64,000 nt of DNA, taken from NCBI GenBank assembly GCA_048939625.1, contig JBHLPH010000003.1:64001-128000 (forward strand). The letters are read 5' to 3'. The stretch comes from Promethearchaeota archaeon (lineage in GTDB: Archaea; Asgardarchaeota; Hermodarchaeia; Hermodarchaeales; Hermodarchaeaceae). Position 1 is the stretch's first letter, and every line of letters begins with the position of its first letter. Shown piece by piece: positions 10,594 through 12,756 of the stretch. Below the pieces are notes generated by a model. That model did not search any database and was not told the DNA's origin. It was given only the letters and a program-made list of their open reading frames with translations. The translations under genes were made by a program, and so were the position numbers.

Positions 10594-10902
10594 ATGTCAG
10601 AAATTTGTCCTATTTGCAGTTTGCCTAAAGAAATTTGTCGCTGCCAAGAATTGGCGAAGACCGAGCAGCGAATTAAAGTAAGCGTTGAAAGACGAAAATG
10701 GGGACGAGAAGTCACCCTTATCGAAGGCATTAACAGCCGAGACATCTCACTATCTGAGCTAGTCACAAAACTCAAAATGAAATGTGCCTGCGGAGGTAGT
10801 GCAAAGGAAGGCATCATCGTCCTTCAGGGAGACCATCGCCATCATATCAAAAACATATTAGGCGATCTTGGATTCCCTGCTGACAACGTCGACATCGCTT
10901 AA
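10594..10902 (+). CDS. Translation initiation factor aIF1 (SUI1)
   Basis: CPICSLPKEIC, RRKWGREVTLIEG, LKMKCACGG, LQGDHR. Confidence 0.95.
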   Translation: MSEICPICSLPKEICRCQELAKTEQRIKVSVERRKWGREVTLIEGINSRDISLSELVTKLKMKCACGGSAKEGIIVLQGDHRHHIKNILGDLGFPADNVDIA

Positions 10903-11062
10903 TACTGCAAGTCTCTCTGCCAATCTTGATAAGATTCCAAGTTTGCCACTGGCAAACGAAAAAGAGAGGACCGTATAAACTGCGGTTTCTATCCTTCAAG
11001 GCTGAGAGGAAACCTTTTTGTGGAAGCACTCGTTTCAACCTTTCTCCGTGCCGGGGCACCGT

Positions 11063-11217
11063 GCCGGGATTATGCTGGTAATTCCTTACCGGCTCCCGAA
11101 GGTGTAAACTGGTATTTGCCCAGGCGCAATGGTAGCATTGAAGCCTGTGGAATCCCATTTGTCCAGGTGGGATGCAGAAAGCTTTAGGTCGGGGTTCGAA
11201 TCCCTGTCCCGGCACCA
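11063..11217 (+). tRNA. tRNA-His(GUG) with three introns: exons 11063-11070, 11101-11107, 11130-11150, 11180-11217; CCA encoded
   Basis: The spliced sequence GCCGGGA TG GTGT AATGGTA GCAT T GAAGC CTGTGGA GCTTT AGGT CGGGG TTCGAAT CCCTG TCCCGGC A CCA folds as a 74-nt cloverleaf. Each intron has a BHB-like junction. Confidence 0.9.
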
Positions 11218-11262
11218 TTTTTCAATCCAAAGGAGGATAATAGATAGAAATTCGAATACGAG

Positions 11263-12756
11263 TTGAAAAACATGAAACGTGGAAAAGAGCTAGCCGTAGG
11301 TGGGTTTCGCGACTACTACCCAGAGCTTTACCAGAAAATCGATGTAATATTGCGCGCCTTCCGTGAAATCCCTAAGCTCTTCGGATATATCGAATACGAA
11401 TGCCCAACGGTAGAACCTCTGGAATTATACGAATTGAAATCGGGACCTTCCCTCGTTGAAGAAACTTTCAAAGTAACTGATCGGAAGAAGCGACGACTTG
11501 TATTACGTCCAGAAACCACACCGTCGTTAGCGAGGATGCTTGCAGTTCAACAACAAAATTATCCACGTCCCATCCGATGGTTTTCCATTTCACGTGTATT
11601 TCGAGACGAAACTCTACAACGAGGACGCGTCAAGGAATTTTGGCAATTAAACGTTGACATACTGGGTACAGAGGACGTCTCCGCTGATGCAGAAGTGATT
11701 AATGTTCTTGCAGCCATCATTCTGAGCTTAAACTTCACACCTGAAGACTTTGTTATTCGAATTAATGATCGCCGGCTCATCCAGAGCTTCATCGAATCCC
11801 TAGGTCTGCCAAATTATGTTGAGATTATCCGAGTGTTAGATCGTCGTGAAAAACTCTTACAAGAAACTCTCATTACTAAACTTACAAAGGCGGGTACCCC
11901 ACCAAAAAAAGCGGAAGAAATCGCACTCAAACTCCGTCATTTCTTTGTTGGTAAGCAGAAAGATATACCCAAACTTCCTCGCACAAAGCAAATAGAAGAA
12001 TTGAAAAAACAGCTTCCACGTCTTCAACGCGACGCACTAATGAAAACCTTATCTGATGCAGGTGTCCCTCAAGATGCTGCCCAACAACTCACAGATTTCT
12101 CAGCTATTCGAGGAACCCCAAAGGAGTTTCTTCAAAGAATGAAAGAGGTCAAACTAGATGAAGCTACAAAGAAAGCCTTAGAACCCCTTAGACAGCTAGC
12201 AGAACAGTTCGAAGATTTAGGATTAACGGAAGTCTGCGAATTCGATGCCGGAATTGCCCGGGGCCTTGATTACTATACAGGAATCGTCTTTGAAGCTTGG
12301 GATCGAAGTAGTGAATTACCTCGTGCAATTGCAGGAGGAGGTCGTTATGATGACCTTGTTGGCATTTTTGAGGGACAGCGCTTGCCAGGTACTGGATTTG
12401 GTTTTGGTGAGACTGTTATCATGGAGCTTGCTGAGGAAATGGGCATACTCTCACCACCTCCTCCACCAGCAGAAGTTTATCTCGCTCCTGTCTCCAAAAA
12501 GCAACTAAGCGTTTGTCGAGAAATTGCCACACAGCTTCGAGCAGCAGGAATCCGAACCATTTTCAATGGTTTCTCATGGTCCTTGTCTAAGCGTCTCGAT
12601 GATGCCAGTAAAAGACAGGTACCACTCGCCGCAATTGTCGGACCGCGCGAGCTTGAGCAAAAATCAGTAAATGTCCGAAATATGAAAAGCGGGAAAGAGA
12701 AAATTGTGAAAATAAGTGCCCTTGCAGACTATGTTAAAAGTACTCTGGATTCCTAA
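11263..12756 (+). CDS. hisS: Histidine--tRNA ligase with enlarged insertion domain
   Basis: GFRDYYP, LRPETT, FRDE..QRGR..EFWQ, RGLDYYTG, AGGGRYD, C-terminal anticodon-binding domain. Confidence 0.96.
   Translation: MKNMKRGKELAVGGFRDYYPELYQKIDVILRAFREIPKLFGYIEYECPTVEPLELYELKSGPSLVEETFKVTDRKKRRLVLRPETTPSLARMLAVQQQNYPRPIRWFSISRVFRDETLQRGRVKEFWQLNVDILGTEDVSADAEVINVLAAIILSLNFTPEDFVIRINDRRLIQSFIESLGLPNYVEIIRVLDRREKLLQETLITKLTKAGTPPKKAEEIALKLRHFFVGKQKDIPKLPRTKQIEELKKQLPRLQRDALMKTLSDAGVPQDAAQQLTDFSAIRGTPKEFLQRMKEVKLDEATKKALEPLRQLAEQFEDLGLTEVCEFDAGIARGLDYYTGIVFEAWDRSSELPRAIAGGGRYDDLVGIFEGQRLPGTGFGFGETVIMELAEEMGILSPPPPPAEVYLAPVSKKQLSVCREIATQLRAAGIRTIFNGFSWSLSKRLDDASKRQVPLAAIVGPRELEQKSVNVRNMKSGKEKIVKISALADYVKSTLDS

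Follow-up and report, generated by a model that had tools for sequence, protein, structure and literature searches.

The only tRNA-His(GUG) gene detected in this Hermodarchaeota archaeon carries A at the discriminator position (A73), encodes no G at position -1, is split by three BHB introns and lies directly upstream of hisS, which codes for a HisRS of a distinct clade (hereafter, type A). The best reading of this arrangement is a tRNA-His/HisRS pair that probably functions independently of G-1 (we put the probability at about 0.75), rather than a eukaryote-style system in which Thg1 provides this nucleotide. The observations behind this reading are the conserved structure of the gene, the agreement of tRNA type with HisRS clade, the absence of Thg1 from the genomes searched in the A73 families, and the substitutions at the G-1-contacting residues of HisRS.

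G-1 on tRNA-His is among the most conserved of all tRNA identity marks. A 2023 review of tRNA identity gives only '-1, C73' for Archaea, and the G-1-less exceptions mentioned in reviews are limited to alphaproteobacteria and a few protists (PMC9976931). A full-text search of the literature on tRNAHis or HisRS together with Asgard, Lokiarchaeota or Heimdallarchaeota yielded no earlier report of a G-1-less tRNA-His in archaea. If the reading is correct, this would be the first time that the histidine identity rule is seen rewired in archaea, and the third, independent rewiring of histidine identity overall, in the archaeal phylum closest to eukaryotes.

Structure of the tRNA-His gene

The tRNA-His gene is called neither by ARAGORN, with the intron option on or off, nor by Rfam at the gathering threshold, and the best that RF00005 yields at this locus is a 20-bit partial match. 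At default settings, these programs report zero tRNAs across the whole window, that is, the entire stretch of 64,000 nucleotides analysed here; they are blind to the tRNA-His gene because it is split by three BHB introns. Once the four exons are joined, ARAGORN recognizes a tRNA-His(gtg) of 74 nt with a clean cloverleaf. The exon map (Table 1) was derived from an alignment with 13 loci from the same genus and 4 loci from the sister genus, in which invariant blocks alternate with variable, covarying hairpins.

Table 1 Features of the tRNA-His/hisS locus in window coordinates (exon positions in tRNA numbering)
Feature	Positions	Strand	Description
123-aa ORF	10847-11218	minus	spans the whole tRNA-His gene; most likely spurious
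T-rich element CCTTTTTGTGG	11012-11023	+	conserved as (C)TTTTTGTG in 17/17 homologous loci
Degenerate tandem copy of the leader and exon 1, CCGT GCCGGGGC A	11046-11058	+	
5' leader CCGT	11059-11062	+	G at -2 (11061), T at -1 (11062); no G at -1
tRNA-His(GUG) gene	11063-11217	+	A73 at 11214, encoded CCA at 11215-11217
Acceptor 5' strand GCCGGGA	11063-11069	+	
Exon 1	11063-11070	+	positions 1-8, GCCGGGA plus U8; invariant in all loci
Intron 1, 30 nt	11071-11100	+	position 8/9; relaxed BHB motif
Exon 2, 7-nt micro-exon	11101-11107	+	positions 9-15, G9, D-stem GUGU, A14 A15; invariant
Intron 2, 22 nt	11108-11129	+	position 15/16; strict BHB (BHB scan)
Exon 3	11130-11150	+	positions 16-37, remaining D arm, anticodon-stem 5' strand, C32-G37; anticodon GTG at 11147-11149
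Intron 3, 29 nt	11151-11179	+	canonical 37/38 site; strict BHB, central helix CUGU/GCAG (BHB scan)
Exon 4	11180-11217	+	positions 38-76, A38, anticodon-stem 3' strand, variable loop, T arm, TCCCGGC, A73, CCA
T arm CGGGG-TTCGAAT-CCCTG	11190-11206	+	
Acceptor 3' strand TCCCGGC	11207-11213	+	
T5 run	11218-11222	+	TTTTT right after CCA in 13 same-genus loci
hisS	11272-12756	+	494-aa type A HisRS (P0001), Pfam PF13393 and PF03129; 55 nt downstream of tRNA-His

The first intron forms a relaxed BHB, with a 4-bp central helix (CGGG/CCCG), two 3-nt bulges (AU-N and AN-G) and an irregular inner helix. Its hairpin varies among 13 loci with compensatory changes, and it is missing, precisely at the predicted junction, in three alleles of the sister genus (L015, L017 and L018), in which exon 1 is contiguous with exon 2, so that GCCGGGAT runs directly into GGTGTAA. 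In the spliced cloverleaf, the GUGU of the micro-exon pairs with GCAU to form the D stem. An alternative candidate for the 5' strand of this stem, ATGC at 11072-75, was dropped: it varies freely in relatives, while GTGT at 11102-05 is invariant and pairs with GCAT. In the second intron, the central helix is GUGU/GCGC and the inner hairpin CUGG/CCAG, with a loop that differs in length among the loci; locus L014 has GCAC, which preserves the pairing (G.U to A-U). The third intron is missing in L016, L017 and L018, again precisely at the 37/38 junction. Thus, the 8/9 and 37/38 junctions are both confirmed independently by intron-free sister-genus alleles. At the 3' end of the tRNA-His gene, one sister-genus allele (L017/L030) reads GGC-A-CCA-CCA, that is, the encoded CCA is duplicated.

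The flanks of the gene contain several conserved elements. The T-rich element upstream is possibly a TATA-like promoter box, and the T5 run that follows CCA is likely to act as a transcription stop; in the sister-genus loci, a TTTT run is found two or more bases downstream of CCA. The degenerate copy of the leader and exon 1 is located 13 nt upstream of the genuine CCGT GCCGGGAT and, in the minimum free energy fold, can pair with the 3' strand CCCGGCAC. Of the same-genus loci, 12 extend over this region and all 12 have the copy (upstream sequence is truncated in the 13th, L008); it also occurs in L016/L031, and intron 1 is present in each of these loci. The copy is absent from the alleles without intron 1 (three or four alleles). 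Intron gain may have left this pseudo-copy behind as a footprint, or else it may be a decoy that frees exon 1 for BHB formation. The BHB scan found no motif in the leader or in the pseudo-copy that would be able to splice a G into position -1.

Conservation and copy number

The 3' end TCCCGGC-A-CCA adjoins hisS in every locus that was read, in 13 genomes of the same genus and 4 of the sister genus, and the named Hermodarchaeota records retrieved via the HisRS protein, some of which represent the same genomes, show the same A73 3' end. In each of the family loci read, tRNA-His is directly upstream of hisS. Across 17 species-level genomes, the exons are invariant and the introns drift. Scanning the whole genome for a GUG anticodon arm combined with a T arm and a matching acceptor recovered only the locus in the window and no second tRNA-His; in the relatives, the second-best matches of the covariance model are tRNA-Asn, Gly, Asp and Ser. 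We conclude that this locus is functional and is the sole detected tRNA-His(GUG) gene of this archaeon. The sequence-only reading, which had placed the discriminator A at 11214 before CCA and T at -1 (11062), is borne out on both counts, with the refinement that L014 has A at -1. It had named a sequencing error at 11214 or a functional C73 tRNA-His elsewhere as what would overturn it; each locus read has A73 together with encoded CCA, and neither the genome nor its relatives yielded a C73 copy.

The scan of the genome identified at least 29 tRNA genes, all with encoded CCA and none with C73. Only 13 are detectable if introns are disallowed, and many contain non-canonical or multiple introns, so automated annotation of this lineage would under-call tRNAs; for tRNA-His, with its three introns and 7-nt exon, such annotation could wrongly call the gene absent. 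RNase P RNA is present in the genome (179.6 bits). Just outside the window, a tRNA-Ser(UGA) gene (G000:C38:131309-131420) has an acceptor stem identical to that of tRNA-His (GCCGGGA/TCCCGGC) and a similar T arm, but differs at N73, with G against A in tRNA-His; hence, the acceptor helix cannot separate the two identities.

A distinct HisRS clade matches A73 across Asgard families

Relatives of the HisRS encoded next to the tRNA gene, at 64-81% identity, come from Hermodarchaeota records, including Ca. Hermodarchaeum yapensis; further type A relatives, at 39-47% identity, are named Heimdallarchaeota, Heimdallarchaeaceae or 'Asgard group'. When this protein was compared with 151 genomes, full-length matches of about 500 aa (E <= 1e-106, 36-46% identity) were found only in families f1 (Hermodarchaeota), f4, f13, f25 and f27; in all the remaining families, the matches were only weak and split into two segments, to proteins of about 435-470 aa. 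In the maximum-likelihood tree, the type A sequences form a single clade (94/97 support), with the HisRS of f9, a C73 family, as the sister group; the HisRS of f6, f12 and f14 is placed in another part of the tree, together with DPANN sequences. Type A enzymes share an enlarged insertion domain, of 132-143 aa (about 133 in the window HisRS) compared with 73-79 aa (about 76) in other Asgard HisRS, so that this domain is about 55 aa larger in every type A enzyme. We considered whether the enlarged domain is uniformly basic, and it is not, with the net charge ranging from -9 to +12.

The tRNA side was surveyed with a covariance model of positions 16-76, for which sister-genus alleles poor in introns were used; with this model, 151 genomes of the phylum were searched and the best loci were read. 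The tabulation of N73 that the sequence-only reading had called for thus gives A73 in five families and C73 in eight. A73 without G at -1 is found in Hermodarchaeota, f4 (5 genomes), f13 (2), f25 (1) and f27 (1), so this combination is not unique to Hermodarchaeota; the four further A73 families carry Heimdallarchaeota or Heimdallarchaeaceae labels in their NCBI names. C73 goes with an encoded G-1 in seven of the eight C73 families (f6, f9, f12, f15, f16, f19 and f21). The eighth, f10 (genome G027), has C73 with T at -1 (L086, G027:C228:8409-8709), lacks an encoded G-1 and carries Thg1 (G027:C212:5302-5673); such templated addition of G-1 is the classical route of archaeal Thg1, and f10 serves as an internal positive control. 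All A73 Asgard tRNA-His genes have G1-C72, with no G1.U72 wobble. Apart from -1 and 73, inspection by eye of position 32, pair 7:66 and the D arm revealed no tRNA position that consistently separates A73-type from C73-type Asgard tRNA-His. Family f27 has two copies of tRNA-His(A73) (L144 and L145; G123:C94 and G123:C64), both with an intron at the same 15/16 site as in Hermodarchaeota; one of them, at 3 kb from hisS, shows two mismatches in the acceptor stem and is possibly in decay.

HisRS clade and tRNA type match perfectly: all five type A families have A73 and all eight families read with other HisRS have C73. The tRNA-His/type A HisRS pair arose once within the evolution of Asgard HisRS and is common to Hermodarchaeota and several families labelled Heimdallarchaeota.

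Substitutions at the G-1 contact residues of HisRS

In the Thermus thermophilus HisRS-tRNA complex, G-1 is held by Arg7, Arg115, Arg122 and the Gly72'-Gly73' pocket, and in the G-1-less system of Caulobacter, HisRS has DD at the position of the two glycines (PMC4357726); the insertion domain clamps the acceptor stem in the complex. We aligned the window HisRS by HMMER to T. thermophilus HisRS (4RDX), without gaps in the contact regions. In this enzyme, Arg7 corresponds to Gly10, Gly72-Gly73 to Lys72-Lys73, Arg115 to Thr115 and Arg122 to Lys122.

Set against 15 other Asgard HisRS, 27 type A sequences extend this pattern. Position 115 is Thr in all 27 type A sequences and the first pocket Gly is absent from all of them. 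The equivalent of Gly-Gly is K[KNDE] in 14 Hermodarchaeota HisRS, DD, EE, DE, EK or EN in f4, SE in f25, SG in f27, and NG or FG in f13, the second Gly being kept in f13 and f27. Bulky or charged residues thus take the place of the pocket in Hermodarchaeota and f4, and do so only in part in f13 and f27. Among the families with other Asgard HisRS, 7 of 12 have GG, and some C73 enzymes have GD, GQ or KG; the Arg115 equivalent is also lost in C73 families, to Ala in f9 and Asn in f12. The motif-2 loop of type A is R-[DN]-E-T-x-Q-[RK]-G-R-[VLS]-[KR]-E, as against R-Y-[ED]-x-P-Q-x-G-R-[YR]-R-E in most other Asgard HisRS, with f19 and f21 departing from this pattern. In the window HisRS, this loop is RDETLQRGRVKE, with the Gln retained and no 2-residue insertion.

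The HisRS of Escherichia coli has Asn-Gly at the Gly-Gly position. Given this, and the GD, GQ or KG of some C73 Asgard enzymes, Gly-Gly is not strict for G-1 dependence; conversely, the G-1-independent HisRS of trypanosomes keeps Gly-Gly, so the pocket signature is no reliable predictor of G-1 dependence. The residue signature of type A is therefore suggestive of a lost use of the G-1 pocket, but is not a proof of it.

Under the G-1-independent reading, the primary transcript of tRNA-His would include a short leader, its three BHB introns (8/9, 15/16 and 37/38) would be excised by the archaeal splicing endonuclease and ligase, and RNase P would then cleave at the ordinary +1 site. The predicted mature tRNA-His would combine an acceptor stem of 7 bp with A73 and CCA, and would lack G-1 at its presumed 5' end. 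It would be charged by the HisRS encoded 55 nt downstream, a type A enzyme that may no longer use the G-1 pocket and presumably depends on the GUG anticodon, A73 and contacts made by the enlarged insertion domain.

Thg1 and other explanations for the missing G-1

The sequence-only reading had left two options, eukaryote-like Thg1 activity or a G-1-independent HisRS. The second is favoured by the substituted G-1-contact residues, and the Thg1 route is disfavoured by a search for Thg1/TLP, which that reading had itself proposed and which produced no match over the cut-off in the genome. The search was performed with PF04446, with a cut-off applied, across 201 genomes of the phylum, and was negative for all 52 genomes of the five A73 families (the window genome, 18 others of f1 and 33 from the other families, namely, f4 0/21, f13 0/7, f25 0/2 and f27 0/3). 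One weak match in the window genome (G000:C57:3705-3881; 15 bits, E 0.03), with two in-frame TGA, was discounted as noise. The genomes are MAGs that are 72-95% complete, so the absence of Thg1 is statistical rather than absolute. For a eukaryote-like route to operate, RNase P would have to cut at +1, after which an untemplated G-1 would be added opposite A73 by a missed Thg1 or by an unrelated enzyme, with a HisRS that is still G-1-dependent. A73 is the eukaryotic discriminator, opposite which eukaryotic Thg1 adds G-1 (PMC3245924), Caenorhabditis elegans obtains G-1 without Thg1 (PMC4338351), and all the genomes searched are incomplete. We nevertheless consider this route very unlikely. The same profile that gave no match over the cut-off in the A73 families did so in 13 other genomes of the phylum, and the search also detected Thg1 in the Methanosarcina control; archaeal-type Thg1 requires C73 (PMC3245924); and both the HisRS pocket and Arg115 are substituted, the pocket with opposite charges in different families (KK vs DD or EE), which therefore resembles relaxed constraint rather than a new mode of reading G-1.

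The extra nucleotide could also be a templated one, if U-1:A73 and G-2:C74 pairs lengthened the precursor helix, such that RNase P cut one nucleotide upstream, as happens with bacterial G-1:C73, and HisRS read U-1 in an 8-bp stem. A pairing of the leader GU with A73 and C74 is possible, GT is kept at -2/-1 in 15 of the 17 Hermodarchaeota loci (T at -1 in 16 of the 17 readable ones), and the HisRS of Aeropyrum pernix accepts A-1 or C-1 (PMC9976931). However, -2/-1 is AA in L014, the one locus with A at -1, and AT in L016, and the other A73 families have T, A or C at -1 (T, T, C, T and A in the f4 genomes). Moreover, T at -1 is a general leader preference of this genome (14/28 tRNA genes), and T-1 with A73 is the commonest combination among all its tRNA genes (11/29), so that a U-1:A73 pair would not be specific to tRNA-His and could not single it out. 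With the pocket for the -1 nucleotide filled by Lys or acidic side chains, we find this processing scheme very unlikely. Finally, the gene could be a decaying copy, or A73 an assembly error, with a working G-1:C73 tRNA-His hidden in the 12% of the genome that did not assemble. Completeness of the MAG is 87.6% and its contamination 6.3%, and the gene, with its three introns and micro-exon, is unusually fragmented; but the constancy of its exons against drifting introns, the same state in every named Hermodarchaeota MAG, the lack of any other GUG tRNA found in the genome, the other specificities of the next-best tRNA matches in relatives, and the covariation of HisRS with tRNA type make this extremely improbable.

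Comparison with known G-1-less systems

The G-1-independent pair proposed here resembles that of Caulobacter crescentus (Ardell & Andersson 2006; Yuan et al. 2011, PMC3064791), which also combines A73, no G-1 and a divergent HisRS clade that covaries perfectly with the tRNA type. In both systems, the Gly-Gly pocket has become charged (DD in Caulobacter; DD, EE or DE in f4, and KK or K[NDE] in Hermodarchaeota) and HisRS has acquired peptide insertions, here the expansion of the insertion domain by about 55 aa. The two nevertheless belong to different domains of life, the Asgard pair having arisen independently within the archaeal HisRS clade. In Caulobacter, the G1.U72 wobble is an identity element, as opposed to G1-C72 in Asgard; and the Asgard system differs further in the retained motif-2 Gln and in a tRNA gene that contains three introns and directly precedes hisS.

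In Trypanosoma brucei and in Acanthamoeba castellanii, both of them protists, likewise, there is neither an encoded G-1 nor Thg1-dependent addition of G-1, as in Hermodarchaeota, where no Thg1 gene was found; recognition by the protist HisRS has shifted to the anticodon (Rao & Jackman 2015, PMC4338351), and presumably did so in Hermodarchaeota as well. The differences are U73 in T. brucei and, in trypanosomal HisRS, the preserved Gly-Gly and a short insertion domain. G-1 independence is biochemically proven for the protist enzymes and predicted for the Hermodarchaeota one. With the canonical archaeal tRNA-His (G-1:C73, or C73 with an archaeal Thg1), the Hermodarchaeota tRNA shares the anticodon, the cloverleaf and the encoded CCA, but both G-1 and C73 are absent from it. 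Should the pair prove to be G-1-independent, the timing and cause of the rise of A73 would become testable with recombinant enzymes, and type A HisRS with its tRNA-His would offer a naturally orthogonal pair.

Relationship to the eukaryotic system

The sequence-only reading had labelled this tRNA eukaryote-style, a designation that fails beyond A73. Eukaryotic cytosolic tRNA-His shares the A73 discriminator and an unencoded G-1, but there G-1 is added by Thg1, which was not found here, and eukaryotic HisRS has Ala-Met-Thr in place of the motif-2 Gln118 (PMC10100707), a Gln that type A retains. Among solved structures, type A is closest to Thermoplasma HisRS (E 4e-67), followed by the enzymes of T. 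brucei and T. cruzi (about 1e-55 to 2e-58), with human cytosolic HARS far behind (E 1e-32). In comparison with human HARS, the HisRS of the C73 family f14 gives E 1e-71 and that of f9 gives E 1e-26, which is type A-like. Judged from these similarities, type A HisRS is not eukaryote-like.

The origin of A73 has been placed in early eukaryotes (PMC3245924). A conceivable, if unlikely, scenario is that A73 on tRNA-His predates eukaryotes: an Asgard lineage from the side of Heimdallarchaeia, one that includes Heimdallarchaeum, would have fixed it and lost G-1:C73, the Thg1-added G-1 of eukaryotes would be a secondary regain on an inherited A73, and the cassette of tRNA-His and hisS would be the unit that spread the rule between Asgard lineages.

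More generally, Asgard HisRS falls into two deep types (L120, L123 and L124 vs L122 and the window hisS). One, with LR[FY]DLTVP and KRY motifs like those of human cytosolic HisRS, is found in f6, f12 and f14; the other, with LRPExTP and IRW motifs like those of Thermoplasma and trypanosomal HisRS, comprises f9 and type A.
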